The position numbers were made by a program, and so were the translations under genes. A DNA stretch of 64,000 bases from Gemmatimonadota bacterium (GTDB taxonomy: Bacteria > Gemmatimonadota > Gemmatimonadetes > Gemmatimonadales > GWC2-71-9): contig JBDHAB010000001.1 in NCBI GenBank assembly GCA_039588295.1, positions 384,001-448,000 of the forward strand. The letters run 5' to 3'. Below, one piece after another: positions 1,697 through 60,875 of the stretch; the first letter of the stretch is position 1, and each line of letters starts with the position of its first letter. Below the pieces are notes generated by a model. The model made no database searches. It had not been told where the DNA came from and worked only from the letters and a program-made list of their open reading frames with translations.

Positions 1697-1873
1697 TCAG
1701 TCAGCCTCGCCGTCGCTCTCCGCTCGCTTGGATCTCCCGGCGCTGCGCAGCGCACGTCTCAGCAAGAACTCCATCTGGCCGTTCACGCTGCGCAGCTCGT
1801 CCTTTGCCCAGCGTTCGACGGCGGCATACGTCTCAGGATCGAGTCGGAGCAGGAACGCCTTTCGATCGACCAC
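1697..1873 (-). CDS. Small Arc/ribbon-helix-helix DNA-binding protein (58 aa)
   Basis: Below ORF-track cutoff; GTG start, [58 protein letters not shown]; 7 nt after SPFH stop. Confidence 0.8.
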
Positions 1874-1880
1874 GACACGG

Positions 1881-2750
1881 CTACTGGTACAATGACCCCG
1901 TGTTCACGACCGGCTGCGTCCCGCGATCCGAGCACAAGACCACGAGCAGGTTGCTCACCATCGTCGCCCGTCGTTCCTCGTCGAGCTGAATGATGTTCTT
2001 CTGAGAGAGCTGCTCCAGGGCCATTTCAACCATGCCGACGGCGCCGTCCACAATTTTGCGCCTGGCGGCAATGATCGCGCTCGCCTGCTGGCGCTGCAGC
2101 ATCGCGTGGGCAATCTCGGGCGCATACGCCAGGTGGCTCATGCGTGCTTCGAGGACCTCGACCCCGGCCTTTTCCAGACGCTCCTGGATCTCTGTCTGAA
2201 GCTGCTCAGCGATCTGCGCGGTGTGGCTCGTGAGCGCTTCCTCATGGGTCTCGTGGGCGTCGTACGGGTACCGTGTTGCGAGCCCACGGAGTGCGGCCTC
2301 GCTCTGCACGTGGACGTACTCCTCGAAGTCATCGACCTCGAACAACGCCTCGGCGGTGTCGACCACACGCCAGACCACGACGGTAGCGATCTCGATCGGG
2401 TTGCTGTTGCAGTCGTTGACCTTGAGCTTGCCCGTCTCGAAGTTGCGCACCCGAACCGACACCTTCCGCTTCGTGTAGAAGGGGTTCGCGTACCGCAGGC
2501 CGGGCGTCTTCACCGTGCCCACGTACTTCCCGAAGAGCTGTAGTATCCGGGCCTCGTTCGGGTTGACCACGAAGAAGCCGGCCATCAAGAACGACAGCAC
2601 CGTGAACACGAAGCTGGCGGCAATGATCTGTCCCACCGACTCTGCGCGCACCGCAGTGAAGAACCAGTAGCCAACCACGAACATCCCGAAGATGAGTCCG
2701 GCGAGGGCGGTATAGCCCGACCCGACCTCACGCTGCTGTTCCTTAATCAC
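1881..2750 (-). CDS. SPFH (Band 7) domain membrane protein
   Basis: Two N-terminal TM helices; [48 protein letters not shown]. Confidence 0.92.
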
Positions 2751-2777
2751 CGCTGCCTCCTGCGAAGAAGACTATCA

Positions 2778-2808
2778 ATATGATATCATATAGCTAGCGT
2801 TGTGTCAA
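2778..2808 (-). promoter_or_regulatory. sigma70 promoter overlapped by 14-bp palindrome
   Basis: Minus strand TTGACA (2808-2803), 17 nt spacer, TATCAT (2785-2780); perfect palindrome ATATGATATCATAT at 2778-2791 covers the -10. Confidence 0.7.
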
Positions 2809-2856
2809 GTAGCTTGGGTGAAACCGAGAGTCGGGGAGTTTGGTGAATCCATCCCG

Positions 2857-3381
2857 TCAGTCGCCGAGTACCCGGAGGTATGCCTTCCACGGTCCCACGG
2901 CGCCGCCGTATCGCTTCGCCATCACTCGCGTGATTTGTCCAAGGTGTCCGAAGTCGTGCACGACCCAGGTCGCCAGGAGTTCCCGCAGCGTGACGGATCC
3001 GAACTCGGGGTGTCGTCCTCGGCGATCGAGGTCTGCATCGGAGAGCTTCCATGCGCGAAGCGTCTCGACGCTTCGCGCGCGACGCTGGGCGAACTCGTCG
3101 AGCAGCTGGCGTGGAGATTTGTCTTCGGAATCTGCGAACTGCGCAAACCGATCGAACGGCTCGAACTGGCGGCTTTCGCCGCGCTCGAGGATGATCTGCG
3201 CGCGCGGGATCCAGTTGGTCTCTTCGCCATGAATCAGGTGCCCGACAACATCAAACGGGCTCCACGTGTCTGGTCCCTCCGTGTGGTGCCACCAACCTTC
3301 TGAGAGGCCGTCAAGCAGCACGCGCAGCACGTCAGGCGTGCGGGCGAGTATCCGAATAGTGTGGTCCAGTTCGAACGGCAT
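2857..3381 (-). CDS. DinB family protein
   Basis: Start re-assigned to MPFELD; WSPFDVVGHL..GE..NWIPR, ATWVVHD.GHLGQI His motifs. Confidence 0.85.
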   Translation of the reverse strand: MPFELDHTIRILARTPDVLRVLLDGLSEGWWHHTEGPDTWSPFDVVGHLIHGEETNWIPRAQIILERGESRQFEPFDRFAQFADSEDKSPRQLLDEFAQRRARSVETLRAWKLSDADLDRRGRHPEFGSVTLRELLATWVVHDFGHLGQITRVMAKRYGGAVGPWKAYLRVLGD

Positions 3382-3416
3382 GCGAGCCTCCGCGTCCTGA
3401 GTCTGGGGTGACGCTC

Positions 3417-3804
3417 CTAGGTGCCCGACTCTTCGAATCGCTTCAGTCGAAGACCCATCATCAGCAACACCACCCCCAAGACAACGAGCATCGGTCCGCG
3501 GCCGTTCCAACGCCATAGGTCATCCCAGTCCCGTTCCCGACGCTGGAGGTGATCGCGTGCCTGTGAGAGGCCGCGGCGCGTTCCCTGCATGTGTTGGGCG
3601 ATCCCCTGGGGGGTCCGCGATGGCAGTATCGCTGGCGACGACTTGGAGGCTGTCGAGGCTCCGAGACAGCGACGCTACGGTCGCTCGCTGTGAGTCGAGT
3701 GCGCTCTTGACTGCCAGGGTGTATCCAAGCGATCCCAACATGAAGACGAGGCCGAGACCTCTGAGCCAGCGGGAGAGAGAGGTCAACCGGGATGCCCGTA
3801 CCAT
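3417..3804 (-). pseudogene. Two-TM membrane protein interrupted by +1 frameshift at G6 tract (3608-3613)
   Basis: Removing one base joins MVRASRL..TAIAD to PQGIAQHMQG..WDDLWRWNGRGPMLVVLGVVLLMMGLRLKRFEESGT*; span is 3n+1. Confidence 0.55.
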
Positions 3805-3808
3805 ACGT

Positions 3809-5257
3809 CTAGTCGCTCTTTCCGGTCTCGGCCGTGGCCGCTTGCTGGAGGAGTTCCCAGGCGCGCTCGACGTGCCGCCGCTCGGTATAGGGCCCGCCGA
3901 TGGCCATCCGGAGCACGGTGTGATCGTGGAGCCGAGTGTGGGTGAGGAAGACGGCTCCGGATGCGTTGAGGCGGTTCATGATACGCTCGTTGACGGCGTC
4001 ACCACCGATGTGGCGGAAACAGACGAGATTGAGTGGCACGGGTGCGACGATTTCGTACTGCGGGCTCGCATTCACCCAGGAGGCGAAGTCTCGGGCGAGC
4101 GCTACGTGCCGGCGGATGTGATCGCGCAACCCATCGACGCCGTAGTGGCGAATGACGAACCACAGCTTGAGCGCCCGAAACCTCCGGCCAAGCGGAATAT
4201 GCCAGTCGCGATAATCGAACACTGCACCTGATTCCGTCGCTGTGGTTCGCAGGTACTCCGGGAGGACGCGGAGGGCTCGGATCAGTCCGGAGCGGTCGGC
4301 GACGTAGAACGCATCGCAATCGAAGTTAGTGAGCATCCACTTGTGCGGGTTGAAACAGTAGCTATCCGCCAGCTCCATGCCGTCGTGGACCCATCGATGT
4401 TCAGGGCATAGGGCCGCGCTTCCCGCGAGGGCGGCGTCGACGTGCAACCAGAGTTCATTGCCCTGACAGATCTCTCCAATCGCGCGGACCGGGTCGATGG
4501 CAGTGGACGATGTCGTACCGACGGTGGCGCACACGAGGAACGGAATGCGGCCGGCTTGGCGATCGTCGTCGATCGCGCGTTCCAGCATCTCCGGCCGCAT
4601 CGCGAATGCCTCATCCACTTCGATGCGCCGGAGGTTCTCCCGGCCGATGCCTGCAATCGCGATACTCTTTTCGACTGACGAATGTGCTTGCGTCGAAGCG
4701 TACGCGGTGAAACGCCGATCCACACCCGTCTCGTTGGTTCGGTAACTGCTGGCGCGCTCCCGAGCCGCCACTACGGCGCACAACGTGGAGGACGATGCCG
4801 TGTCTTGAATGACTCCGCCGCCGCTCCCCGAAGAGTTGAATCGTTGCGGTAGTCCGAGGAGCTCCACCAACCAGTCGAGCACATGTGTCTCGAGTTCCGT
4901 GCAGGCGGGGCTGGTGGTCCATGACATGCCTTGCACGCCGAGTCCTGAAGACACCAGGTCGCCGAGCATGGCAGGTGGGGAGGCGTTGGCGGGAAAATAG
5001 GCGAAGAAGTTGGGTGACTGCCAGTGCGTAATGCCTGGTATGACAATCTCGTCCAGGTCTCGCAGAATTGCGTCGAATGGCTCGCCCTGCACCGGCGGCG
5101 TCGCGGGAAGTCGGGCGCGAATCTCTCCCGGTTCGGCTTGGGAGAGGACTGGGAACCGCTCGAGTTCCTCAAGGTATCGTGCGACCCAATCGACTGTCTG
5201 GTAGCCTGCCCGTCGGAACGCTGCGGCCGTCATGTGTCGGTGTGATGGCTCGGACAT
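3809..5257 (-). CDS. Aromatic L-amino acid decarboxylase (PLP-dependent group II)
   Basis: PGITHWQSPNFFAYFP, SPACTELE, WLHVDAA, FNPHKW (PLP lysine), IPLGRRFRALKLW. Confidence 0.92.
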   Translation of the reverse strand: MSEPSHRHMTAAAFRRAGYQTVDWVARYLEELERFPVLSQAEPGEIRARLPATPPVQGEPFDAILRDLDEIVIPGITHWQSPNFFAYFPANASPPAMLGDLVSSGLGVQGMSWTTSPACTELETHVLDWLVELLGLPQRFNSSGSGGGVIQDTASSSTLCAVVAARERASSYRTNETGVDRRFTAYASTQAHSSVEKSIAIAGIGRENLRRIEVDEAFAMRPEMLERAIDDDRQAGRIPFLVCATVGTTSSTAIDPVRAIGEICQGNELWLHVDAALAGSAALCPEHRWVHDGMELADSYCFNPHKWMLTNFDCDAFYVADRSGLIRALRVLPEYLRTTATESGAVFDYRDWHIPLGRRFRALKLWFVIRHYGVDGLRDHIRRHVALARDFASWVNASPQYEIVAPVPLNLVCFRHIGGDAVNERIMNRLNASGAVFLTHTRLHDHTVLRMAIGGPYTERRHVERAWELLQQAATAETGKSD

Positions 5258-5258
5258 C

Positions 5259-6209
5259 TCACCGCTCCTGTTCCGTGGATTGGGACCCGTCGCAGAAGGT
5301 GACGAGGGCCGACATCACCTCACGCTGCTCGCTGCTTCCCGCGGGGCGGTTCAGGAGCACTCCGTTCACGACGAGGGCAGACGATCCGCCGCCGTCCAGA
5401 TTGAGCGCTTGTACGGCACCCAGGTCCTGCAGGATGGTTGCGAGCTCCTCGAGATCGACACCGCGACTCTGCGGTTGTCGGCCATCGACCACCACGATGA
5501 GGAGTGCCCCGTCGCCGGTGATGCCTACGGCAGTTCGTGGATGGACCCTGGGAATCGAACTGCCGAAGAACACCTCCTCGTCGACGGTCACGCGAGGCCG
5601 TCCATCGACCACCAACATGGGACCAGCCGCGACGGCGTCCCGAACGTCCCATCGACGGGCTCGTTGTCGAGGTGGGAGGCTCGAGGGCACGCCCGGGCGG
5701 TGTGCTGGCGGCGTTCGCCAGGCGAGAACCGTGTCGTTATGCGTCGAGGCCCACGTGATTTCGATCTCATCATGCTCTGTGAAGCCGATCGCGGCCCGCG
5801 CAGTCTCGTATCGGAGCGAGTCTCGTGTCACCGTTCGCGTCGCCGCCGCTCGAAGCTGACCGGCCGTCAACAGCAAACCGGCATGGATGGCGGGCGTTCG
5901 GCTCATGTTGAAGTAGCCGGCATTGACAGCCACGCATGCATCATGGTCCGCGGCAAAGCTGGTCACGGTCTCGCGGTTGTCTGCAATGTCGTCGGACATC
6001 AGCACCCGAGTGACGATCGATGGATCACGTTCGTCGACGCGGACATACCAGGCTCGAAGTGGCAGCGCACTGTTTAAGCCGGCGTAGACCCGGACACCCG
6101 GTGGGAGGGCGTTGTTGACCGCCGTCATGGGTTCCCAGGAAATCGGGATCGGGCCCGGGTCCGATCCGGTGCACGAGCTTCCGGCCAGGAGGCTCAGGAT
6201 GGACAGCAC
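5259..6209 (-). CDS. Phosphodiester glycosidase (NAGPA-like) family protein
   Basis: VNAGYF, GPMLV.DG, HPRTAVG, VVVDGR, ALNLDGGGSS. Confidence 0.85.
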   Translation of the reverse strand: MLSILSLLAGSSCTGSDPGPIPISWEPMTAVNNALPPGVRVYAGLNSALPLRAWYVRVDERDPSIVTRVLMSDDIADNRETVTSFAADHDACVAVNAGYFNMSRTPAIHAGLLLTAGQLRAAATRTVTRDSLRYETARAAIGFTEHDEIEITWASTHNDTVLAWRTPPAHRPGVPSSLPPRQRARRWDVRDAVAAGPMLVVDGRPRVTVDEEVFFGSSIPRVHPRTAVGITGDGALLIVVVDGRQPQSRGVDLEELATILQDLGAVQALNLDGGGSSALVVNGVLLNRPAGSSEQREVMSALVTFCDGSQSTEQER

Positions 6210-6245
6210 GGCGGTCCGGCGTGTCGCTGGAATGGGCAGGGTCTC

Positions 6246-6881
6246 CTACGTCGCGGGTTTACGCCCGACCACTTGCACGACAGCGCTCCTGCCGTGATGC
6301 AGCCGGCCTTCGACCACGTCCCGATCGACCTCCCGTGCCACGACGAGATCGAGTCCTACGAGCTCCTCGCGGAGCTCGGTCAGCGACACCAGTAGCTCTC
6401 GGATGGGCGGTCCACCCGTGCCGTAGTCGAGCTGGCGAGGTAAATAGGCTTCGAGAATCAACGCTCCGCCGGGCCGGAGGCCGGCTGCCGCAGCTTTGTG
6501 TAAACGCGTGCGGATGTCGGGGAGTAGATGGCAGAATATGGAAACAATGCCGTCCCGCGAGTCCGGCTCGATAACATAGTCCGACAGATCGGTGACTTCT
6601 GTGGTGATGGACAGGCCGGCCGCTGCCGCGAGACGGCTGGCTTTCTCGAGGCCAACCCTCGAAGCATCGACGGCATGCACCTGGTGCCCTTTCCGTGCAA
6701 GGTACACCGCGTTACGTCCCTCGCCCTCCCCGAGGCTCAGGACGCGACCCCCGGGAATGTGGTGAGCCACGGCTCGCAGGAACGCGTTCGGAGTGGTGCC
6801 GTATGCGTACCCCGGCTTGGAGTACCGAGCATCCCACACATCTGACGAGCTCGTCACGATCTGCTGAACACCATGGTGCAC
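6246..6881 (-). CDS. Class I SAM-dependent methyltransferase (TehB-like)
   Basis: WDARY..YAYG..PN.FL, VLSLGEGEGRNA; exact start uncertain. Confidence 0.85.
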   Translation of the reverse strand: MHHGVQQIVTSSSDVWDARYSKPGYAYGTTPNAFLRAVAHHIPGGRVLSLGEGEGRNAVYLARKGHQVHAVDASRVGLEKASRLAAAAGLSITTEVTDLSDYVIEPDSRDGIVSIFCHLLPDIRTRLHKAAAAGLRPGGALILEAYLPRQLDYGTGGPPIRELLVSLTELREELVGLDLVVAREVDRDVVEGRLHHGRSAVVQVVGRKPAT

Positions 6882-7535
6882 CTATTCCGCCCGGAAACCT
6901 TCGTCGGCGTGCGATCCGTCGCAGAACGGTTTGTTGTACGAGAACCCACAGCGGCACAGCGCCGCCTTGTTGTTGCGTGACTTGGGAACGCCGAGCCCGT
7001 CTACAATTCTGAAGTTTCCGCGAAGGAGCAGCGGCCCGTCGGGCTGGACGGTGATCGTGACCTCTCCCCCTGACTCGCCTTCGTCGTCCTTGGTCCCGCC
7101 CTGAAGGGTCCCGTCGTCGCGAAAGCCAGCGTCTGCGTGTCGGCCGTCACAGAGTGGCTTGTTGTGCGAGGCACCGCAGCGGCACAGTGCTACCCTGACG
7201 TCGCGGAGCAGCTCCTCGTCGCCAGGGCGCCGGATCGTGATGTTGCCGTTCACATAGAGTGGACCGTCCGGGCAGACCGTTACCGTGTTGTCGGTCGGCG
7301 ACGCTTCCGCGGCACCGCCGTCCAGCCGCTGGGCGCTCAGCGCGCCGGTTGGGCACCTTGTGACAACGCGTGCTACCTCGTCCGGCGAGCCGCGACTGAC
7401 ATCAATCCACGGACGCCGATCGGGGTCGAAGACCTCCGGCAAGCCGTGCACGCATTCGGCAGCGTGAATGCAGCGTGCGGTATCGTAGGTGACGCGAAGT
7501 TGCTCGGTCTCGTATGTGCGCTTGCTGCTCTTCAT
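6882..7535 (-). CDS. Divergent 4Fe-4S (Fer4_19) domain fused to two CDGSH Fe-S domains
   Basis: CIHAAEC..LPEVF...CPTGAL; CRCG.S.NKPLCDGRH and CRCG.S.NKPFCDGSH; start re-assigned to MKSSK. Confidence 0.88.
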   Translation of the reverse strand: MKSSKRTYETEQLRVTYDTARCIHAAECVHGLPEVFDPDRRPWIDVSRGSPDEVARVVTRCPTGALSAQRLDGGAAEASPTDNTVTVCPDGPLYVNGNITIRRPGDEELLRDVRVALCRCGASHNKPLCDGRHADAGFRDDGTLQGGTKDDEGESGGEVTITVQPDGPLLLRGNFRIVDGLGVPKSRNNKAALCRCGFSYNKPFCDGSHADEGFRAE

Positions 7536-7575
7536 GATCCGTGCTTCCCGCTCTGGTCTGCGATATGGTCGGCTG

Positions 7576-8088
7576 CTACGCCGATCCCGTACTCCCCAGG
7601 CCGCCAACGCGGTCGGTCGACTGACCAACCGCACCAGCAGTCCACGGCAACGCCACGAACCTGCTGAGCACGGCTTGGGCAACGCGCTCGTTGTGTTCCA
7701 CGTGGACCGTGCGCGGTGAGTCATTCTTCACCATGACCAACCATTCGTCGGGGTAGTCCGGGTCGATAGTCCCAGGGGCGTTGGGAAGCACCAGGCCGCG
7801 TTGGAAGGCCATGGAGGAGCGAATCCGGACTTGTGCCTCATAGCCCTTGGGGACGCGAGCCTTGAATCCTGTTGGAATGAGAGCAACGTCCCCCGGTTCG
7901 AGCAGGAGCCGATCGTCGGTCACCGGTACCTCCGTTCGCTTTCCACTGACACCGCGTATCACGGTGACGTGGCGGCCCCGCAAGTATGCTCGAAGGTCGT
8001 ATCCGGCAGAGCCGTCAGTCTCCCTTCTAGGTGGCAACACGTCTGCGTGCAACGGATCGAAGACGATGTTCGGGGTCGCGTCTGCCAT
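7576..8088 (-). CDS. dut: dUTP diphosphatase
   Basis: GSAGYDL, RSS, NAPGTIDPDY, RVAQ, RVGGLGSTG motifs. Confidence 0.92.
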   Translation of the reverse strand: MADATPNIVFDPLHADVLPPRRETDGSAGYDLRAYLRGRHVTVIRGVSGKRTEVPVTDDRLLLEPGDVALIPTGFKARVPKGYEAQVRIRSSMAFQRGLVLPNAPGTIDPDYPDEWLVMVKNDSPRTVHVEHNERVAQAVLSRFVALPWTAGAVGQSTDRVGGLGSTGSA

Positions 8089-8142
8089 CGGGCTCCCTGC
8101 GGGTGGGACCGAATTATAGTCAATCACACGTTGATCGCTCGA

Positions 8143-8466
8143 TTACGGCGAGCGCGGGCGCCAACGATGGCGCTCAAGGTCCAGGCGGCCATCGCTGTCA
8201 AACTGTATGCCCTCGGCTTCGAGCAGAACCCGCTGCAGTTTGTCGTAGCCAGGCTGTGATCTGGGGCTCACTCGTCCCCGAGCGTTGACCACGCGGTGCC
8301 AGGGAACGGCCGCGTCGTCCTCAAGTGCGTTCAACGCATAACCGACCTGACGAGCGTGCCCGGATAACCCCGCGAGGGTTGCAACCTGTCCGTAGGTTGC
8401 GATGCGACCTCGTGGAATGCGGCGGACGACCGCGTAGATCCGTTCGTACGTCGAGCGTGTAGGCAA
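8143..8466 (-). CDS. Alkyltransferase-like (ATL/MGMT family) protein
   Basis: IPRGRIATYGQVA, ARQVGYAL, PWHRVVN (Trp in place of catalytic Cys). Confidence 0.88.
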   Translation of the reverse strand: MPTRSTYERIYAVVRRIPRGRIATYGQVATLAGLSGHARQVGYALNALEDDAAVPWHRVVNARGRVSPRSQPGYDKLQRVLLEAEGIQFDSDGRLDLERHRWRPRSP

Positions 8467-8519
8467 TGCGGCGTTGGTACGATTCGATCGGCCGGGGTCG
8501 TCGAGCCGCGGTAACGGCC

Positions 8520-8918
8520 CTACCGCGTTTCGACAGGCAGCCGACTGCGACGCCAGCCCGCCATGTCCCCGTCGAGGTGCAGTACGTTGTAGCCCGCTTC
8601 CTTGAGCACGGACTCAGCGTACTCGGCACGAGGTCCCTCCTCGCAGTAGACGACAACGTGCCGGTCGCTGGGAATCTCGGTGAGACGTGCACCGACCTGC
8701 ACATGGGGGATGTTGAGTGCGGCCGGCACGTGTCCGTTGCGGTATTCTCCCGGTGCGCGGACGTCGAGGACAAGTGGAGCGGAGTCGGAGGCGAGGAGCC
8801 GAGCGAGATCCGCAGGTGCGATGACCTGGTGGGTAGTCATGGCGTCGCTGCACGCCATGAGCGCGGCGACCGATGTCACGGTAGACAACAACAACATACG
8901 AACGCGGTATCTCTGCAT
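8520..8918 (-). CDS. Rhodanese-like lipoprotein
   Basis: Lipobox LMAC; LDVR..EY..GHVPAA.NIP, YCEEG.RA, LDG.M.GW. Confidence 0.82.
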   Translation of the reverse strand: MQRYRVRMLLLSTVTSVAALMACSDAMTTHQVIAPADLARLLASDSAPLVLDVRAPGEYRNGHVPAALNIPHVQVGARLTEIPSDRHVVVYCEEGPRAEYAESVLKEAGYNVLHLDGDMAGWRRSRLPVETR

Positions 8919-9042
8919 GCTGCTACCTCTCAGAGCCACAGAATTCCGATGGCTCGGCCACCTGTGCCGGGCCGACTTCGTGGCACAAGCTAGTGGGGAT
9001 CGATCTGTCTCGGCAACGGCCGCCACGGAACACGCGGGCGAG

Positions 9043-10233: not shown

Positions 10234-10306
10234 TCGCGGGGGGTGGGGTGAGGAGGTCGAGGTCGGGTCCTGGCTGAAAGGGTAACGATCGTTCAGGTGC
10301 TCAGTG

Positions 10307-10579: not shown

Positions 10580-10677
10580 TGGACGGGTCCTCCTGCCATG
10601 CTGTAGTGCTGACTCGTGCTGCCGTGCCGAGCGAGTTCAAGTTGCCGCTACCGACCTCACACGCGCAACCGGGCGTA

Positions 10678-52457: not shown

Positions 52458-52545
52458 CGTGTGTCTGCGTCCAGGCTAGGACTCATGTCGGCTCGGCTCG
52501 CAGCGTTCCACCGCGCACGGTTGCACCCATGATGATGGCCGCGCC

Positions 52546-52624
52546 GCCCAAAGGTGCTTCGATAGCGCACGAGCACAATGGTCGCGGTCACGAATCTACG
52601 GCCTCGATACATGCTCTCGTGGAC
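52546..52624 (-). mobile_element. Degenerate attC-like site
   Basis: GTCCAC-GAGAG-CATGTATCG right after the stop; ends GAAGCACC-TTTGGGC. Confidence 0.35.
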
Positions 52625-52625
52625 C

Positions 52626-53888
52626 TCATCGTCGAGTTGGGCTCCCGGGCTGCTCAGTCGACAGAATCGCCTCCATGGCCGCATCCCGCCCGGCGAAGTA
52701 GTCCTCGGAGGAAGGTGGCGCCCAAAGGTCTGGCTCAATCGAGCGGCGTCCATCACCCGGTGCGTCACCGTGGTACACCGACGACACCGTGAGCGTGAGG
52801 TCACTGTTGGGCAGGCGAAGCCTGACGGCGTCGCCGAAGTGGTTGGGGCTCCCCCCGGTCGGCTCCCCGACGAATACCACGCCCGTCGTGGCGTCCAGCC
52901 GCGTGACGAGCTTCTGCGCGGCGGAGTAGGTTCCGCGCCCGATGATCACGTAGAACCGTCCCCTGGTGACCGACGGCGACGACTTCACCCATTCGACGAC
53001 GGGGGCGTTCAGGTAATCATTGCCGCCGCCATTGCCGCGGACGTCCAGCACGATACGCTGGATCGGGAGATCCCTCGCGAACTGCGAAACGCGGTCGAAG
53101 TACTGTGCAATCGTTTCGTCGGAGGCATCCCGCACGCGATTGTACTGCACATAGAGCGTCTGAGATTCCTCCAAGTACTGATGCCAGTAGTTGTCGGCCA
53201 CCCGCCGACGGTAGAGCGGCTCGGTGTCACCTTCCGCCGCGTCGATCCAGTTCAGGGTGGCGTCAAACGGCAGCGGCGTGAGATCGACGGTGAGTTCTCG
53301 GCCCTGGCGGTCCGCCAACACGAAGCGCGCCTGATCTCGGTCCGGGGTGATCTCGAGCGCGTGTAGGATCTCGGGAAGCACCATGGCGTCCGGCACCCGA
53401 TTCTTCAGTGTCATCGCATTGTCATGGGCCGTGATGGTAGCGACCGCAGTGTACGCCTCCTCGGCGGTCCTGTCGCCGAGCTTCAGGAGGCGAGCGCCGA
53501 CGGCGCCTCTCAGCGCAGAGGGCGCGCTGCGCACGAAGATCCCGTCGTCAAAGACGTGGAGACGAAGTGGATACTGACCGGTCAAGAACTGGAGGCCACC
53601 CCGAATGCCGGTATGACCATCCTGGATCATCGCAACGATCCGAGCCATTTCCACGATGATCTCATGGCTGTCCAGCGTGGGAATCCTTGCGTACAGGGCA
53701 TCGACCATGCTTTGCAGGGACTCTTCCGTAACGGCGTGGAACGGGTTCGGGTGATGCGTCCGGATCGATTGCCAAAGGAACGCCAGATCCTCGCGCCATT
53801 GCGACGTGGGGAGAGTCTGAGCTTGTGAAGTGGCGAAGCCCCCGGCGAGCAGCAATGTCAAGAAGACTGGAAGAAATGAACGTTTCAC
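52626..53888 (-). CDS. S41 family peptidase-like secreted protein
   Basis: W.EDL......H.NPF, DGHT, LDVRGNGGGN, GR.TYSAA, VGEPTG. Confidence 0.82.
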   Translation of the reverse strand: MKRSFLPVFLTLLLAGGFATSQAQTLPTSQWREDLAFLWQSIRTHHPNPFHAVTEESLQSMVDALYARIPTLDSHEIIVEMARIVAMIQDGHTGIRGGLQFLTGQYPLRLHVFDDGIFVRSAPSALRGAVGARLLKLGDRTAEEAYTAVATITAHDNAMTLKNRVPDAMVLPEILHALEITPDRDQARFVLADRQGRELTVDLTPLPFDATLNWIDAAEGDTEPLYRRRVADNYWHQYLEESQTLYVQYNRVRDASDETIAQYFDRVSQFARDLPIQRIVLDVRGNGGGNDYLNAPVVEWVKSSPSVTRGRFYVIIGRGTYSAAQKLVTRLDATTGVVFVGEPTGGSPNHFGDAVRLRLPNSDLTLTVSSVYHGDAPGDGRRSIEPDLWAPPSSEDYFAGRDAAMEAILSTEQPGSPTRR

Positions 53889-53972
53889 AAGATCAACTCA
53901 CTCAGTTGACACGTTTCCGTGGCAAGTCAGCGGCACATTCGGGCTGCAGCCGATCTATGGTTGGCGTGTGTG

Positions 53973-54503
53973 CTACCGTGACCAGGGCGGTACGATGTCG
54001 TTCATCCGTGCGTAGGCAACCGACTGCCCGACATGCTCGTTCATATGTGCCAGCAGCTGAAATAGCACCGCCCACCCGGGAACGCTCCGGCCGTAAAGCG
54101 TCGTCAAGCGTGTGAGGTCCGCCTCGCCCATATCATTGACTGACGCTCGGACGTGCTCGATCGATTGCGCCAACAGCTGGGTTACTGTTGCCTTGTCCGT
54201 GATCGACTCGAAGTTCTGCCAATCGACACCTGGAGCGGCGTCAATGCCAAGTGACTGCTCGAGGTACAGATAGTTGTAGCGCGCGATGTGCGCGTAAACG
54301 CGCCCGATCGACATGACGCCCTCGCCGGGACTCCACGTGTAGAGATCTGCGGGAATCTCCCTCGAGAGCATCATGAGTTTTCGACTCGACCGGTCGAAGT
54401 GATTCGCAAACTCATCGCGATAGTCCGTCGGTGCGCTCTGAGCGAGAGAAGTTGTCGCGCCGACGAGCAATGCGAACGCCAGAAGCAGGATGGTACGCGT
54501 CAT
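53973..54503 (-). CDS. Secreted DinB family protein
   Basis: Signal peptide; Y.W.PGEGVMS...V..HIA..N, H..EH.GQ..AYAR.N.IVPPWS. Confidence 0.85.
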   Translation of the reverse strand: MTRTILLLAFALLVGATTSLAQSAPTDYRDEFANHFDRSSRKLMMLSREIPADLYTWSPGEGVMSIGRVYAHIARYNYLYLEQSLGIDAAPGVDWQNFESITDKATVTQLLAQSIEHVRASVNDMGEADLTRLTTLYGRSVPGWAVLFQLLAHMNEHVGQSVAYARMNDIVPPWSR

Positions 54504-54514
54504 TTCAGTCGACC

Positions 54515-54973
54515 TCAAAGTGATGGTGGGGTCATCGAGTCGGCCGCTCCCAGCTCGGGGAGGCGCCGCGCACGGTCGATCGCGGCAGCCATTGCGCTCG
54601 CCTGCTCCCGGTCTCGACGGCGGATCTTAAGCCTGAGTACTCCGAGTCGAGCGCTTGGGATCCCCTCGAAGACCTCGAGGCTTCGCCCCTGGAGCTCCAG
54701 GCGCGGCGTCCACCATGCGCGGAACCGCACGCTTGCGATAGCATTCGCCGGGACCTCGAGCCTCCCGATGGGCGAGCGGTCGACCTCATCAGTCACGCCA
54801 CTGAACGTCACCCACTGCGAATTCCGTGTCGCGGCCCACTGCAAGGAGATGGTGTCCCCGTCGAGATGAAGCAGGCCTTCCACCCGATAGGAGATGGAGC
54901 GCACGCCCTGAGAATCGAGGGCGTCGATGCCCGGAACCCGCAGCCGAAACGGGAGCGGATCGGTCAACGACAT
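54515..54973 (-). CDS. Hypothetical protein
   Basis: RBS AGGAGG; co-oriented; PH-like beta pattern. Confidence 0.65.
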   Translation of the reverse strand: MSLTDPLPFRLRVPGIDALDSQGVRSISYRVEGLLHLDGDTISLQWAATRNSQWVTFSGVTDEVDRSPIGRLEVPANAIASVRFRAWWTPRLELQGRSLEVFEGIPSARLGVLRLKIRRRDREQASAMAAAIDRARRLPELGAADSMTPPSL

Positions 54974-55007
54974 GACCCCTCCTGGCAGCTCGATGCGTCT
55001 GATGCAG

Positions 55008-55463
55008 CTAGGCGCGCGGGTTGCATGCGACTCGAGCACCCTCGTAGCTCACAAGCGCGCTCGCTCCAAACCTCGTAAAGACGTGGCCTCTTCCGGTGAA
55101 TCGCTCGTCTCGGACGTTGCCGAAGAGCCAGATCCACCACGATGCGTCTCCCCACTCAACCCGAACGGAACCAGCCCTCAGCGGTTCCCACCGCCCGCGC
55201 ATCCGTGACCCAGGGATAATGACAACGCCGCGGGCCGTGATCCCAAGCTCGATGTGAGACGGCGCAATGCTCGTGTCAGGATTGGCCATTGGCTCACCGG
55301 CTATACGCTGCAGGGACCAACAAACGCTCGGGAGGTCATCGGGGGGCGGCCGCCGACCCAGCACACCGCAGCCGCTTGCGAGGACCGTGACCAGGAACGC
55401 AACGGCGGCCGGTGAATGGGGGCCGCCTCGAGAGCCGGACAACGCGCCCCTGCCGCTATGCAA
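55008..55463 (-). CDS. Hypothetical lipoprotein
   Basis: LASGC lipobox; start uncertain. Confidence 0.45.
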   Translation of the reverse strand: MHSGRGALSGSRGGPHSPAAVAFLVTVLASGCGVLGRRPPPDDLPSVCWSLQRIAGEPMANPDTSIAPSHIELGITARGVVIIPGSRMRGRWEPLRAGSVRVEWGDASWWIWLFGNVRDERFTGRGHVFTRFGASALVSYEGARVACNPRA

Positions 55464-55641
55464 TAGTCATCTCGGGTAAAGGCAGTTCCTTCAAGTACAG
55501 CGACTCGAGGGCAGCGCCGGTCTCGATGTTGTCGAAGTAGCAGAACTCGCCATGCTCGCCAAGGTTGCCGCTTTGAATCATCTCCTGCCCTTGTCTGGAG
55601 AGTTCATCTTTGGTCGACCGCTCCTTCTCGAGTACATCCAA
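55456..55641 (-). pseudogene. C-terminal remnant of VOC (methylmalonyl-CoA epimerase-like) gene
   Basis: G.EMIQSG....GEFCYFD....GAALE half-domain only. Confidence 0.5.
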
Positions 55642-55665
55642 CTTCTCTTCTAGTTTGTGTCCACG

Positions 55666-56160
55666 TCAGTTCGTGCAATTTGGGGGACGTGGCGGCTGTT
55701 CGGCCAAGTTGGCGGCGAAGGACGCGGGCAGATTGGCCGCATGGAAACCGTCCCGTACCGATCCTTTGAACGCCGTTCCACCGTAGCCGGTCGGATGCAT
55801 GTGTGCCCGCACCAAGATGACTGTGTCGGCCAGCACCGACACCGGCCCGCCGCCCCGTGTGAATGGTTGCTCCGCGACGTGGCTGTGCGACAGCGTTCGC
55901 CGGTAGATCAACCGACCATCCTGGCTCAGCACTTCCCACCAATCGGCGTATAGCCGGCAACCCCTGTCAGGACTTCGGACTCCCACGTCGAATCTATAGG
56001 CCCCTGGCTCTCCAGTGGTGCGCACCGACACGACATCGGCGGCGGGCCCAGGCGATTCGAGTTGAGAGGTCTTCGGTGCCGTCGTCCGACACGCGACCGC
56101 CAGGAGGAGGAGCGGCCACACACCAAGGCAGGCCTTGGGGACTCCAGTACCGAACCTCAT
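55666..56160 (-). CDS. Hypothetical lipoprotein
   Basis: LAVAC lipobox; SPD.GC..YADWWEV, YRR.L.HSHV.EQPF.R, RAHM...GYG. Confidence 0.78.
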   Translation of the reverse strand: MRFGTGVPKACLGVWPLLLLAVACRTTAPKTSQLESPGPAADVVSVRTTGEPGAYRFDVGVRSPDRGCRLYADWWEVLSQDGRLIYRRTLSHSHVAEQPFTRGGGPVSVLADTVILVRAHMHPTGYGGTAFKGSVRDGFHAANLPASFAANLAEQPPRPPNCTN

Positions 56161-56444
56161 CGCTCTATTGATAGGTGACGTCCAGCGCCTGTGCTGCGCG
56201 CGTGCTCGATCATCATGTGGGAACATGTCATTTGAACCACGGTGTCGTCCAGCCAGCATACATCACTCTTCAATCGGGATCGCCGCCCTAGCCGGGGCTT
56301 TACCGGGGGCGCTGGCGGCGGCGAAGTGAAGGAACGGTGTTCAGTTGAGACTCTTCGAGCAAGCGTCATTACGCTGCAGCATTCTGCAACCCACGTTTGC
56401 GTGATGGAACCTCGTGTGACGATGAGCGCCCAACCTGCATGCGA

Positions 56445-56660
56445 TCACCGTTTGGGCAGGAACCAGTGGATGTAACCACAGTCGGCGCAGACGAAGCAAT
56501 CCGCATTTGGCGAGGCCCACTCGAGGTCGAAGAAGGTGGCGACTTGAGTGTGGAGCTGTGCCCGCCGGTGCCAGAACCGATCGTGGTGACAGATTTCACA
56601 CCGGAGGTCGTGTCCTTCGACTTGGGCGGGTTCAGGTTCGCGCTTGCCAAATAGTCCCAT
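56445..56660 (-). CDS. Small zinc-ribbon protein
   Basis: CEIC ... CFVCADCGYIHWF; RBS AGGAGG. Confidence 0.8.
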   Translation of the reverse strand: MGLFGKREPEPAQVEGHDLRCEICHHDRFWHRRAQLHTQVATFFDLEWASPNADCFVCADCGYIHWFLPKR

Positions 56661-56684
56661 TGGACCTCCTTGCCTTCAGACCAC

Positions 56685-56736
56685 GCTGAACGGTCCGTGC
56701 CGCTGCCAGGGGGCCGGCTTCAGGCGCCCATTAGAC
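56685..56736 (-). mobile_element. attC-like site (short)
   Basis: GTCTAAT (contains gene stop TAA)-GGGCG-CCTGAAGC ... GCACGGACC-GTTCAGC. Confidence 0.6.
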
Positions 56737-57105
56737 ATCACCATCCTGCCAACGGCGACCGCCAAGTACCCAAAGTGGTATCGTGAGGGGTAGCAGGAGA
56801 GACGCGGACCACCAACCCGTGATTCCCATTTGTCGCGCGTCACCGAGCGCCCAGACCCCCCACGCCACTGCGGTGAAGAAGAGGATGTAGATCGGCGTCA
56901 TGAGGCGTCGATAGCTGACGGCTGGGTATCGCCACGGAGCGAAGAGTAGAATCGAAGTCACGGCCGCTCCGAGGATGGCGAGCCCCAGCGCCGCACGCTC
57001 GGGCTCGCCCTGAGCTAAGACGATTACCGAAAGAATCAACACCCACACGAATCCTCCGGACCACCCTAGCACCCAGCCGAGCTTCTCGCCGGACCGTGTT
57101 GTCAT
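56731..57105 (-). CDS. Hypothetical membrane protein
   Basis: GEKLGW..GW.GGF.W, APWR.P...Y..LM.P.Y; four TM. Confidence 0.75.
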   Translation of the reverse strand: MTTRSGEKLGWVLGWSGGFVWVLILSVIVLAQGEPERAALGLAILGAAVTSILLFAPWRYPAVSYRRLMTPIYILFFTAVAWGVWALGDARQMGITGWWSASLLLPLTIPLWVLGGRRWQDGDV

Positions 57106-57129
57106 GACCCCCACCGGGACAGAAGTGAT

Positions 57130-57265
57130 GTCCAACGTGCCGGCGTGTGAGCCGCGGGCGACGTGCCCGCCAGTCGCACCTCTGAGTTGGATCTGCTCGT
57201 ATTTAGCCAGGCGCTCGCATCCGCGCCACCTACCGCCCCCGCTCAGCTCCTAACGCGTGCTAGGC
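57130..57265 (-). mobile_element. attC-like site
   Basis: GCCTAGC-ACGCG-TTAGGAGCTG ... CGGCTCACACGCCGGCAC-GTTGGAC, complementary arms. Confidence 0.7.
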
Positions 57266-57298
57266 AGTGGGCTCGGCGATGCACTCCGAGCGGACACA

Positions 57299-57703
57299 TC
57301 AACAGGTCGAGTGGATAAGCGCCCCGGCCGGATGTGCCTCCGACAGCTCGTTGTAGAGGCGTACGGCCTCCTCGGTCTTGACCACATGTGCGATGACGTT
57401 GTTCGACTCGAGCATTCGCAGGGTCTCGGGACACACTTGCAGGCGGCCGAGCATACCCGTTGACAGCACCACCACTACCGCGCCGCGCACGAGTAGCTCT
57501 TCGACATCAGCAGGTTGCGTCCCGGGTTGATGATTGGTGCCAGTTTCCCGCCAGTCCCATTCCCGAGCACCGCCGGGAAAGAGCTTGGCGTCCTTGAATG
57601 CACCATGGGACTCCACACGCACGTGACCCCAAGAGAGGTGCGCAATGCGCGGGGATACGGGCTGTTCCTTCAGGAGGGCCGTCTCCAATCCGATGATTGT
57701 CAC
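57299..57703 (-). CDS. Mth938-like (AAMDC) domain protein
   Basis: SPRI.HLSWG, KDAKLFPGG.REWDW.ETGT.H.PG, G.LIHSTC; start placed after attC. Confidence 0.88.
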   Translation of the reverse strand: MTIIGLETALLKEQPVSPRIAHLSWGHVRVESHGAFKDAKLFPGGAREWDWRETGTNHQPGTQPADVEELLVRGAVVVVLSTGMLGRLQVCPETLRMLESNNVIAHVVKTEEAVRLYNELSEAHPAGALIHSTC

Positions 57704-57711
57704 TCGCCGCT

Positions 57712-57776
57712 GTCCAACGACCTGGCGCTGAGCTACAGCGCCACGGAACCTGCGCCTTTGAGCGTTCCCGCTAGGC
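57712..57776 (-). mobile_element. attC-like site
   Basis: GCCTAGC (contains gene stop TAG)-GGGAACGCTCAAAGG ... GTAGCTCAGCGCCAGGTC-GTTGGAC. Confidence 0.7.
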
Positions 57777-58172
57777 CGCTTCAATGCGGTTGAAGATCTC
57801 CACCATCCGCTCAGGATTGACATAGAGCTGCCATACAGCGACACGCCCATCTTCGACCACGACACGCCACGCCGCCTGCGCTACCCAGTGATTCTCTGAT
57901 TTGAGCACTCCGTCCTGATCGAATGTACCCTCGGCGACGCCAAACAGTGCGACTGTGTCACCCTGCGAAAACGCGTCTTTCACGTGAATCTGAAAGTCAG
58001 GAACCATCGAGAAGTACTTCTCCCATCCCCGACGCATCTCCTCGCGTCCGGAATGTTCACTGCCATCAGAGTCCACGAACGCGTGGTTCTCTGTCATCAG
58101 AGTTGAAAGCAGATCCGGATTGCCGGAATTGATGGCATCGACGAATGAATATGCAACCTGAGTGGGAGTCAT
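57771..58172 (-). CDS. SnoaL/NTF2 family protein
   Basis: FVDAIN, LMT..H.FVD..G, W..YF...PD, AAWR, WQ.Y. Confidence 0.85.
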   Translation of the reverse strand: MTPTQVAYSFVDAINSGNPDLLSTLMTENHAFVDSDGSEHSGREEMRRGWEKYFSMVPDFQIHVKDAFSQGDTVALFGVAEGTFDQDGVLKSENHWVAQAAWRVVVEDGRVAVWQLYVNPERMVEIFNRIEAA

Positions 58173-58202
58173 TCTGTGACACTCCTCTACGCCACCTAAC
58201 GG

Positions 58203-58472
58203 TCAGGCCAGGGTGGTGAACCATATTGCTGGCTCGCCAGCCACGCCGGCTGCTGACATCACTTCACCCAAGCGGTCGGACGCTACAAAGGCTCGGGTAG
58301 CCTGCAGTGTCTCAAAGTCATGCCACGCGGTCACGTCGTTGGGGTCGTCCGCCGACATGAAGACCGCGTCACCAATCACGCCCATGCCCTTCCGCTCATC
58401 GTCGAAATCGTCATAGGCCTGTTTCCACTTGGCGAAGTCGGCTACTGGATGGCGCACAAACATGCGAATCAT
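58203..58472 (-). CDS. Small cyclase/ABM-like protein
   Basis: VRH.V.DF..WK..YD, DPNDV...HDF, M..AGV.GEP. Confidence 0.8.
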   Translation of the reverse strand: MIRMFVRHPVADFAKWKQAYDDFDDERKGMGVIGDAVFMSADDPNDVTAWHDFETLQATRAFVASDRLGEVMSAAGVAGEPAIWFTTLA

Positions 58473-58509
58473 GGTGACCTCGTGAGTGGGTGTTGTGAGT
58501 TGGGACTGC

Positions 58510-58598
58510 CGCTAACGTGCAGCGCGGCCGCACACAGGAGATACACTGCTCGGCAGCGCTAGGGCAACTGCCGGTCTCCCCTGCAAATGGCGGTCACC
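58510..58598 (-). mobile_element. Degenerate attC-like site
   Basis: Stop TAA-A-GGTGACC-GCCAT-TTGCAGGGG ... GCTGCAC-GTTAGCG. Confidence 0.5.
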
Positions 58599-58599
58599 T

Positions 58600-58953
58600 T
58601 TACACGCTCATCGCCTTCGGTCGTGCATGCCGTGACTGATAGATGCCGAGCTTGCCGCCGCCCGGCAGGGTCAGGCGCGTGATCAAGCCCCAACTCTCGG
58701 TCTGCACGGGGCTGCTCGTGATGCCGTATTTCTTCATTTCCGCGGTGAACGCCTCGACATCGTCGCACATCAGATAGAACTCGTGCACGTCGTTCTGTTC
58801 GGATGGATGTACTGCAACCTCCGCCGGTGGCAATCCGAAGATCAGCCAGCCGCCGCCCACATCGACATTCGTCAGCTTGAGTACGTCCCGCAGAAAGGCG
58901 CGGTCGGCATCCGGATTCGTGCTGTAGATGATTGAATGCGCACCGATGATCAT
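58600..58953 (-). CDS. VOC family (extradiol dioxygenase-like) protein
   Basis: MIIGAH.IIYS....ADRAF.RDVL, GWLIFGLPP.EVAVHP, LMCDD. Confidence 0.88.
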   Translation of the reverse strand: MIIGAHSIIYSTNPDADRAFLRDVLKLTNVDVGGGWLIFGLPPAEVAVHPSEQNDVHEFYLMCDDVEAFTAEMKKYGITSSPVQTESWGLITRLTLPGGGKLGIYQSRHARPKAMSV

Positions 58954-59229
58954 GGTAGCTGTTCCTCCACTATCGGCACCATGTTGCTGACAGATCCGGT
59001 GGTGTCTCGCTCCAACCTTGGGGTGTCATGCGAGGTCATAGTCGAGTGTAAGCGTGTGCCGGCCGCAACGGGCTGGCGCGGGGGCAGGGACGATTGCATC
59101 GCGTAGCGAAGCATGTCACTGTCCAGCGAAGGTTTCCATCTCAACCAGAAGCTCGGGAAACACGAGAGGGTTGACGCCGAGCAAAGACTGGGGAGGACGG
59201 GTCCGCGCCTCTCCATTTCACAAGGACGC

Positions 59230-60015
59230 TCATGATCGCCGGTTCAGGATTTCTTTGCGCAGGATGTTCCTGAACCGCCCCTTGCTCACGTAATGATCGG
59301 ACAGCAGCTTGCCGTTCCACACCAGGTTAAAGACACCGTAATAGGAAGGAGCATGTTGCGCTTCTTCCGGACTGTCGAGCACCGTGACATTCAGTTCGAG
59401 TCCGTGTTCGGCCGCCATCTCTGAGAGGTCGCTCACCGACTTCGGCAGCATGGGACATTGAGCGCCGTAAACGATGTGCAGGCCCTTGTACCGTGCCAGG
59501 TTGGCGGTGATGTCGCGGAAGCGCGGTGCGGGGCCTTCTTCCAGCCGGTGAATGACAAGCTCGAACCGATCGGCCTGTGCTATCGGCTCGAATCCGTTGT
59601 TGAGAAACACTTGCCTGCCTGCCATCCACGGGCCCTCGCTCACCATCGCTGCGACCCCTCTGACGCCCACCTGTCGGGCTTCCTCTACGCAGGCTTGGAT
59701 CAAGCGGCTCCCGAGCCCGCCCACCTTTTGCCCTGCGGAATAGACCCACAGGCAATGCACAAACAGCCAGCCTTTGGCGTCCACCGGCCGCCAGGCGTAT
59801 TCGCCCGGCACGTATTCGAGGAACGCCAACGGCTTGCCCTTGCCGTCACGGAACAGCAGAAAGCGCAGGCCCTCGGCGAACCGCTCTTGTAGCCATTCGA
59901 CTTTGGGATCATGGCCAAGATGCTTCGGATTCGTGATGCAGCCGATGCCGCACGGCGCCAGGTTTCCAGGACCGACCTTTTCCAGGGTAGCCTCAGGCAT
60001 TCGTTGCTGCTTCAT
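59230..60015 (-). CDS. GNAT acetyltransferase with YoaP domain
   Basis: K..WL..RF.EGL, EYVPGEYAWRPV, HCLWV, QCP, AQ.APS.Y. Confidence 0.88.
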   Translation of the reverse strand: MKQQRMPEATLEKVGPGNLAPCGIGCITNPKHLGHDPKVEWLQERFAEGLRFLLFRDGKGKPLAFLEYVPGEYAWRPVDAKGWLFVHCLWVYSAGQKVGGLGSRLIQACVEEARQVGVRGVAAMVSEGPWMAGRQVFLNNGFEPIAQADRFELVIHRLEEGPAPRFRDITANLARYKGLHIVYGAQCPMLPKSVSDLSEMAAEHGLELNVTVLDSPEEAQHAPSYYGVFNLVWNGKLLSDHYVSKGRFRNILRKEILNRRS

Positions 60016-60016
60016 G

Positions 60017-60496
60017 CTACGTCCCGTCCTGAACCCAGGTCCAGCTCAGGAACAGCCACTTGCCTCCCTCCTTCACCAGCGTCGCCGTCCACCTCCCAGC
60101 AACAGACTGATCCACGCCCGCTCCAAACTTCATTGCTTCCCGGTAACGGAGGTGGACGATCGCCACGTCATGACGCAGCTGCACCGCAAGTGGCTCAACG
60201 TCGAACTCCGTGATCGTACCATTCGCGTAGAAACCCTCAATCATTGTTCTGATTTGTCGGCGACCCAGGGGTACATCCTGCTTGTAGTCCCAGCCTTGAA
60301 ACTCCTCATGGAAGTAGCTCATGATCTCTTCCACATCCCCTGCAATCGATACCCGGGTGTACTCATCGAGCGCCGCAAGCACCTCTTGTTGGGCCGGCGA
60401 CCATTCCTGGGCAATCAGCGACGCCGGCCTCACGACTGGAACAACGATGCTGGCCAGCACCGCACAGCCGGTGACGAGTTGTTTCATGGTACTCAT
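60017..60496 (-). CDS. Secreted NTF2/DUF4440 protein
   Basis: Signal peptide; W...Q.EV, DVAIVH, GRWT..LVKEGGKW. Confidence 0.8.
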   Translation of the reverse strand: MSTMKQLVTGCAVLASIVVPVVRPASLIAQEWSPAQQEVLAALDEYTRVSIAGDVEEIMSYFHEEFQGWDYKQDVPLGRRQIRTMIEGFYANGTITEFDVEPLAVQLRHDVAIVHLRYREAMKFGAGVDQSVAGRWTATLVKEGGKWLFLSWTWVQDGT

Positions 60497-60604
60497 GCCT
60501 CCGTCATAGACCCCCGGTGATACCGGATTCGGACCAACGGGTTGCCGCGGTTGAACGGTTCTCGGTTTTGCTGTGGGCGTCACGCCCACGGTACACGATC
60601 ATCA

Positions 60605-60699
60605 TTTCCTCGCATCAGTCTCTTGCCTTGACGCGGCAGCCGACACGCGGGCCTCCCCGAGTCGTGCGCGGCAGCGAGCTGATGAGGTGCGTGTTAGGC
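60605..60699 (-). mobile_element. attC-like site (R'' intact, R' lost)
   Basis: GCCTAAC 8 nt after stop, then ACGCACCTCATCAGCT ... GACTGATGCG. Confidence 0.5.
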
Positions 60700-60707
60700 A
60701 GCGGCGG

Positions 60708-60875
60708 TCAGGACGCCTGTTTGCCTTTGTAGACAGTGACAAGCCCCTTGATGATGAAGAAGGTCCCGAGGCCGTCAAAGAAGAGGTTGAAAAGGCTGAA
60801 ATCGCCCAAGAAGACGGATCCGCCAAAGAAGAGACCGATGGCGATCAGAACCACACCCGTGATGATATCCCGCAC
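60708..60875 (-). CDS. Small two-TM protein (55 aa)
   Basis: Not in ORF track; RBS GGGAGG, MRDIITGVVLIAIGLFFGGSVFLGDFSLFNLFFDGLGTFFIIKGLVTVYKGKQAS*. Confidence 0.75.
   Translation of the reverse strand: MRDIITGVVLIAIGLFFGGSVFLGDFSLFNLFFDGLGTFFIIKGLVTVYKGKQAS

Follow-up and report, generated by a model that had tools for sequence, protein, structure and literature searches.

A long co-oriented gene run in a Gemmatimonadota genome: a decayed integron cassette array and its probable fossil tail

Introduction

Can an integron turn its gene cassettes into ordinary, stable chromosome? The transition is difficult to observe, since it destroys its own traces. The question is raised by a run of small genes on the minus strand of a Gemmatimonadota genome (GenBank assembly GCA_039588295.1, contig JBDHAB010000001.1, positions 384,001 to 448,000; this whole 64,000-nucleotide stretch is referred to as the window). 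Within it, a segment of about 59 kb carries genes that with one exception all face the same way. An earlier sequence-only reading interpreted this segment as a fossil super-array whose attC sites, the recombination sites of cassettes, decay leftwards from the array head, with older cassettes having lost their sites and become interleaved with housekeeping genes. We find that the right 17 kb of the run is a decayed cassette array, and that the 44 kb to its left are probably the fossil tail of such an array.

Results

A matrix and a hidden Markov model (HMM) of attC were built from 67 training sites; these came from relatives and from other contigs of the same genome, none of them from the window. 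We tested the 65 spacers of at least 25 bp and set significance at p<=0.033 (60 shuffles). Of the 24 spacers that lie between 43.9 and 61 kb, 9 were significant on the minus strand and 1 on the plus strand. The R' box scored above the 95th percentile of 2523 control gene pairs at 9 of 29 junctions on the right and at 1 of 63 on the left, and three right-hand relics reached p 0.002 against 500 shuffles (best of left half, right half and pair). Intergenic minus-strand HMM matches, all mutated, numbered five in 56.2-61.05 kb and one at 50.9 kb. The best relic, at 57.2 kb (Table 1), matched by blastn an intact site on another contig (C86) of this genome (74%, E 2e-14). Relic cores are mutated, and a strict core-plus-hairpin scan of the window gave no intact site, only the 63-nt internal hairpin of the 57.2-kb relic. 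On folding, that relic had a z of +1.26 and its intact relative -1.59, while another intact-looking site reached only -0.69. A contig from a public sequencing run, which may be that of the source sample, covers the 57.2-kb relic without differences; the public-run contigs over 43.5-63.4 kb are short and contain no joint that skips a cassette.

By our own models, not those of IntegronFinder, two or more attC sites thus cluster on one strand, and no intI or intI remnant was found on the contig. The 17 kb at the right are a decayed cassette array, a very degenerate attC-site cluster without integron-integrases (CALIN) by our own models. One relic lies beyond the first gene, which indicates that the array once ran on and was then cut by the plus-strand MMPL gene cluster; loss of the head at ~61 kb accounts for a relic zone without a nearby intI. 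What had been considered a collapsed site, 57250-57268, forms the left half of a relic of full length. A sequence-only model (R1) gave four strong matches that were circular, since it had been trained with four window relics, and nothing else below E 0.067.

The attC cluster did not extend across the whole 59 kb. Spacer score correlated with position over the whole run (Spearman rho 0.25, p=0.015), with p=0.14 left of 44 kb and p=0.076 right of it. The gradient is thus a step at ~44 kb, with a noisy slope only inside the right 17 kb: the proposed relics are real at the right end, and run-wide fading is not what was found. The five relics named further left had best p values, against 500 shuffles, of 0.70 (36558-36657), 0.36 (33458-33507), 0.16 (~28728-28758), 0.16 (18717-18768) and 0.45 (~17790-17845). 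Relics left of 44 kb scored no better than shuffles, the outcome that the sequence-only reading had itself named as telling against it.

One left-hand gene retains a link to cassettes. The methyltransferase at 28034-28681 has a 57% identical homolog in the genome G188, flanked by two intact attC sites. A second homolog has no attC, and the GTTAGGT at the end of the window gene could be a chance motif. Comparison of these loci suggests that the gene is likely an ex-cassette, likely fused to its neighbour. Among seven left and middle families tested, it was the one with an attC-flanked homolog, in a test whose positive control was weak; cassette origin is shown for this family only.

The locus was compared in five of eight congeners (G001, G003, G004, G005 and G008) by DNA search and fetched loci; G000 denotes the genome of the window, C1-C91 its contigs, and the window is G000:C1:384001-448000. 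The block at 1.7-12.5 kb is colinear in all five. In G001 and G008 the locus has 49 and 50 genes, 47 co-oriented in each, of which 21 (tau 0.92) and 22 (tau 0.93) are window orthologs in nearly the same order. Of the rest, 12 in G001 and 13 in G008 have their G000 ortholog at another place in the genome; for 16 and 15, respectively, any ortholog is weak or absent. The last common anchor (43474-43947) is where the relics start; one gene of the relic zone, 51056, is also present in the G001 and G008 runs. The synteny comparison that had been proposed thus showed conserved, nearly colinear anchors, with lineage-specific or relocated genes interleaved between them. The left 44 kb is a genus-level locus and, judging from these gene orders, was probably fixed before the genus radiated.

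The interleaved genes differ in history. The housekeeping genes dut and msrA belong to the ancestral content of the run in each of the five congeners examined and are not late intruders; neither has a blastp paralog among the called genes; the dut type of 7576-8127 (minus strand) was present in 4 of 4 congeners but in 6 of 96 family genomes searched. The trpB2 gene came in from another locus. Its upstream Trp-rich leader ORF is kept in five congeners and G000, which suggests that trpB2 moved into the run as a regulated unit and not as a bare cassette, the direction of the move following from five genomes against one. As an aside, this leader (24926-25033, minus strand) resembles a tryptophan attenuator on a trpB2-type gene. 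An alcohol dehydrogenase (ADH) gene and the five-gene extracytoplasmic function (ECF) sigma module with the plus-strand gene also sit at other loci in congeners. With lineage-specific and relocated genes between ancestral anchors, gene order is not a simple chronology, and the left part cannot be read as a simple age-ordered array.

C3 has at its left end the true integron integrase of G000 (393 bits against a cut-off of 265), co-oriented with its array. An attI-like GTTAGGC lies downstream of it, and the array leaves the contig end. A six-frame search with TIGR02249 (E<=0.001) matched only C3, C18, C42 and C44, and nothing on C1. The run is therefore not a complete integron with intI and attI beside the array: at least 42 kb and a contig gap lie between. 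In G008 and G003 intact attC sites stand just upstream of the run and point into it. The G008 intI is at the end of that genome's contig C44, beside genes that in G001 come after the run on one and the same contig, and no intI was found on that G001 contig. The G000 intI, on C3, is attached to the same core-gene flank. Read across contig gaps, these positions suggest that intI sits on the syntenic flank in G008 and G000.

Each genome of the genus has several attC-bearing loci. In G000, intact or near-intact attC sites lie on small contigs and at the ends of C2, C5, C7, C13 and C36; those of C5 and C13 leave the contig and those of C2, C7 and C36 enter it, indicating several array loci in both orientations to replication. 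An inverted layout, with intI co-oriented with the array, was seen at G000:C3:777-1721 and at the loci L011, L020, L024 and L025; intI stands at four different chromosomal positions among these five genus genomes. We rejected the notion of intI as a cassette in its own right: of 22 intI genes none had an attC half upstream, and the smallest p (0.05) belonged to a simple repeat. A second long, mostly co-oriented stretch of short genes lies behind an attC at a contig end (G000:C2:147662-207662) and holds orthologs of genes from the congeners' version of the window run.

To place the run relative to replication, we used the dnaA position (C1:190-192 kb) and G/C skew at fourfold sites. Right of dnaA, plus genes had a skew of +0.07 to +0.08 and minus genes of -0.03 to -0.05. 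Plus is thus the leading strand, and the run lies on the lagging strand, head-on to replication. Its genes are not a leading-strand gene cluster co-directional with replication, and ordinary leading-strand bias, which the sequence-only reading had put forward as a check, is ruled out as the cause of co-orientation. Ten other long runs in G000 had positive (leading-type) skew in nine cases and skew near zero in one. On the arm right of dnaA minus genes are mildly in excess anyway (94 vs 68). Within the run, the left bins had lagging-type skew (-0.10, -0.06 and -0.08) and the 44-61 kb bin -0.02 (Fisher p=0.017), as expected if the right part arrived recently.

Other genera were examined for the same layout. 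G184, of the same family, has a 1.4-Mb contig with an array whose head runs off the contig end; no intI was located for it. Over 50 kb, median own-model attC scores per 10 kb fell from 119 through 108, 104 and 75 to 18, followed by 68 kb with none, and significant spacers fell with distance (14/15, 10/15, 1/18, 0/16 and 1/25). From 45 kb on, 89 of 109 genes are co-oriented, with a median of 149 aa. Of 31 tail genes with a match in G000, five match the window run (p=0.0008), including DinB 2857 and DUF2277. This locus (G184:C1:1330001-1448225; L421-L426) is a clearer model than the window for decay followed by an attC-less tail. A tally covered eight arrays in other genera (G093, G128, G058, G077, G143, G102, G110 and G119 were left out), in genomes that are kin and not independent samples. 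Over the 15 kb that follow the last site, the co-oriented share of genes was 20/20 in G026, 13/14 for one G033 array, 13/15 in G027 and 19/22 in G184; among G000 control windows, 19% are at 80% or above on a strand chosen beforehand. No general tie of tails to head-on orientation was seen: they occur in both orientations.

The gene content of the run was assessed with our own dicodon gene caller, in an assembly of 4.5 Mb in 160 contigs. Confident calls comprised 76 minus-strand genes and one plus-strand gene (15630-17042), which bears out the single exception noted from the sequence. On either side of the plus gene lie minus runs of 17 genes (1881-15497) and 59 genes (17077-60875); among the 1070 runs of G000 only one is longer than the latter. 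Two small plus calls (8131 and 56466) were disregarded; each overlaps a minus ORF absent from the calls (8143-8466, with a Pfam match, and 56445-56660, without one). With short ORFs and fragments counted, the minus ORFs total 94, and 94 of 95 ORFs are co-oriented. Median gene length in the two runs was 157 and 189 aa, vs 288 aa genome-wide. A Pfam scan of 96 proteins (the 94 minus ORFs and two plus genes) left 40 without a family and found five DinB-type, five GNAT, three SnoaL/DUF4440 and three class I S-adenosylmethionine (SAM) methyltransferase proteins; such families are common among cassettes. NCBIfam cut-offs were passed by dut, msrA, trpB2 and pepE, which confirms the first three identities as read from translations. 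At least six genes are broken, again as first described: gene pieces lie at 17762-17932, 18773-18844 and 55510-55632, a frameshift near 48811, the N-terminus of a short-chain dehydrogenase (SDR) stands alone at 38340-38516, and the methyltransferase 28034-28681 lacks a stop codon. A change in codon usage along the run, which had been suggested as a further check, was not seen: dicodon score and GC content at third codon positions (GC3) were flat (p 0.20 and 0.41).

Table 1. Features of the co-oriented run (window coordinates)
Feature	Position	Strand	Evidence or remark
Whole co-oriented run	1697..60875	-	94 minus ORFs (fragments counted) and one plus gene; runs head-on against replication
Genus-conserved block, no attC relic (RHH, SPFH, DinB, PLP decarboxylase, NAGPA, SAM methyltransferase, CDGSH, dut, ATL/Ogt-type, rhodanese, MFS, GNAT)	1697..12525	-	Colinear in G001, G003, G004, G005, G008; spacer tests negative
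Five-gene ECF sigma / CBM48 module, holds sole plus gene	12571..17042	.	Sits at other congener loci
Mosaic middle, no significant attC relic (anchors msrA, 21933, 29528, 35033/35392, 39596, 39871, 43474)	17077..43947	-	Ancestral anchors in kept order, lineage-specific or relocated genes between
trpB2 and upstream Trp-rich leader ORF (24926-25033)	23428..25033	-	Different, common locus in G001, G002, G004, G006, G008
SAM methyltransferase, likely fused cassette	28034..28681	-	No stop; GTTAGGT (28040-28034) 14 nt before next ATG
Decayed cassette array (CALIN-like)	43950..61046	-	Mostly missing from congeners' version of locus
Faint right-half attC relic	44624..44645	-	p 0.013 and 0.02 in two tests
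attC relic, R' core intact	50934..51010	-	p 0.002
attC relic, middle and right part	56178..56271	-	Spacer model and HMM
Left-half attC relic	56710..56739	-	Spacer models
Best relic, full length, R'' core mutated	57130..57268	-	109/128 aligned bases match intact site on G000:C86
Right-half attC relic	57709..57740	-	Spacer models and HMM
R' core alone, immediately 3' of stop codon	58191..58204	-	Spacer model
Full-length attC relic, R' degenerate	60548..60702	-	Spacer tests and HMM
attC relic upstream of first gene	60941..61046	-	HMM; plus-strand MMPL cluster from 61189 cuts array

Discussion

The explanation that we favor, with a probability of roughly 0.58, is a decayed array at the right followed by 44 kb that would be this integron locus's tail, older and fixed, into which some genes probably moved later. 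Synteny suggests that an inverted-type integron, with intI co-oriented with the cassettes, stood at the right (upstream) end and would have laid cassettes down one way. The array is head-on, so that its attC bottom strands lie on the lagging-strand template, the excision-prone orientation according to Loot et al. (PMC5371416). This orientation may have selected for loss of attC in genes that were kept: retained genes would have lost their sites by point mutation or deletion and become non-excisable, and unwanted genes would have decayed to fragments. The left part would have been fixed before the genus radiated. Lineages then lost and gained genes between anchors, nearly always in the same orientation, a pattern seen in the congeners whose cause we propose here. 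Finally, the array head was cut at ~61 kb by the plus-strand gene cluster.

Several results weigh against this reading. On the left of 43.9 kb the HMM found attC in 0 of 41 minus-strand spacers (3 of 41 plus), no better than in 2523 control spacers. A detector for downstream attC (sensitivity 44/67, false positives 0/300) was applied to 240 homolog loci for six families (81 + 159, the first set counting one own locus per family; the locus of G176, an unpublished genome, is left out of the 81 but is among 42 dut-positive genomes). Complete downstream sites were found in 0/78 homologs of DinB 2857, 0/78 of methyltransferase 6246, 0/30 of the cupin, 0/15 of GNAT 12019, 0/7 of gene 43474 and 0/3 of GNAT 34454, and dut homologs gave one weak half-site in 29 loci. 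Window proteins had only three weak matches among 175 intact cassette ORFs of relatives, and trpB2, SPFH and the decarboxylase are unlike cassettes. The folding test is weak, since an intact-looking site on C36 likewise failed to pair its ends. The links from C1 to C3 and, in G008, from C4 to C44 are unassembled; between the run and the C1 end stand at least 42 kb of DNA with genes on both strands and no attC; and intI is at three other loci in G002, G004 and G005, so the platform moves or is replaced. Four of the eight other-genus arrays have no long tail (co-oriented genes in 15 kb 11/20 in G032, 3/10 for the other G033 array, 4/13 in G076 and 6/10 in G147), and a common pool of small accessory families could equally explain the matches between G184 and the run.

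These points lead to the strongest competing explanation, to which we give about half the credence of our own: that the right 17 kb alone derives from an integron, which landed beside an ordinary insertion-tolerant accessory region that keeps mainly those genes that face the prevailing transcription. The negative attC tests on the left all fit it, the relic boundary coincides with the last common anchor at 43.9 kb, trpB2 was relocated together with its leader and the ECF module as one unit, and long same-strand runs do occur elsewhere in G000. Of ten such other runs, however, nine are leading-type (one is near zero) and seven of these nine or ten have median genes of ~290 aa or more, and of 229 control 15-kb windows just 7 had both 80% or more on one strand and a median of 200 aa or less. 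The array-then-tail layout recurs in G184, G026, G027 and one G033 array, a cassette homolog exists for the gene at 28 kb, and the negative homolog test had a positive control that itself failed to give complete sites (0/7 for the relic-flanked SnoaL 57771). The full version of the sequence-only reading, one age-ordered super-array with recognizable relics fading to ~17.8 kb, is improbable: the score-position correlation over the run and the skew gradient are in its favor, but the five named left-hand relics did not stand out (p 0.16-0.70) and, with lineage-specific and relocated genes between anchors, the order is no simple chronology. That leading-strand bias or mis-assembly made the run is the least probable account; the 160-contig assembly gives it some footing, but the run is on the lagging strand by both dnaA position and fourfold-site skew, the same run is found in congeners, and the public-run contig (possibly from the source sample) spans the 57.2-kb relic unchanged.

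The decayed array with an older tail has partial precedents. In 2016, CALINs with very degenerate attC were proposed as a step toward definitive gene stabilization (PMC4889954). The right end resembles them in having several co-oriented attC without nearby intI, with intI elsewhere in the genome. The CALINs described there average 5 sites and are bounded by detectable attC, whereas here all sites are mutated and a 44-kb attC-less, co-oriented and partly genus-conserved stretch lies beyond. In class 1 integrons, partial or total attC loss through slippage or illegitimate recombination fuses cassettes into operon-like permanent arrays (PMC8876359). Both the 28-kb methyltransferase and the isolated R' core at 58.2 kb are consistent with such fusions, although in that source these concern pairs of resistance cassettes in mobile integrons and not tens of chromosomal genes. 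As in sedentary chromosomal integrons (Loot et al. 2017, PMC5371416), the array is chromosomal and its orientation to replication can be determined. According to the same source, 25 of 30 of those had attC bottom strands on the leading template and lagging-template arrays had at most 22 cassettes; unlike that majority, our locus is on the lagging template, with no intact attC and no adjacent intI.

Off-target insertion of cassettes at attG sites, leaving single attC sites lacking integron-integrases (SALINs), has likewise led to the suggestion of domestication by attC deletion (bioRxiv 10.1101/2022.09.11.507474). In the part of that work drawn on, attG insertion in E. coli had no strand bias, and alone it cannot explain the near-uniform orientation of the run. 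In eroded Xanthomonas integrons (bioRxiv 10.1101/2025.06.18.660453), intI has been lost in particular lineages and CALINs lie apart from intI at conserved loci; an attC-less tail is not described in the passages covered. A published account of such long attC-less tails was not found, in a literature search that was thin on subscription journals. In the sections cited, the cassette-to-ordinary-gene transition was thus already proposed for small degenerate CALINs (PMC4889954; bioRxiv 10.1101/2022.09.11.507474), and it is the scale here that is unusual.

Should the tails be former arrays, attC-based tools would undercount integron-derived DNA; integrons could leave long stable stretches of chromosome that standard searches miss. 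A bolder generalization, which we hold only tentatively and consider doubtful, is that integrons of this family act as conveyor belts that write permanent chromosome, 44 kb here and at least 70 kb in G184, with attC erased and host genes still taken up in the array orientation. As part of that tentative picture, such ex-cassette tails would be old enough for genus-wide conservation and would hold the genome's sole detected dut and msrA, and integrons would contribute far more to genomes than surveys based on attC register. The locus and its relatives form a graded series, from intact sites through mutated sites to none, with genus-conserved genes at the far end, which makes the question testable by comparative genomics.

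Other observations

Database look-ups returned no function for the anchor gene at 21933-22718. Scans of the window for direct repeats and tRNA genes gave nothing relevant, the top repeat being an internal duplication of the CDGSH gene. Within the relic zone, the methyltransferase ORF at 45176-46087 (minus strand) has an N-terminus ~60 aa longer than its congener homologs, possibly a read-in across a lost boundary. Elsewhere in the genome, short unrelated genes at G000:C91:3599-8405 are separated by a ~90-nt repeat with an inner palindrome, which is not attC; the contig appears phage- or plasmid-like. The 18.8-kb contig C61 carries a cluster of what, from translations alone, look like phage structural genes.

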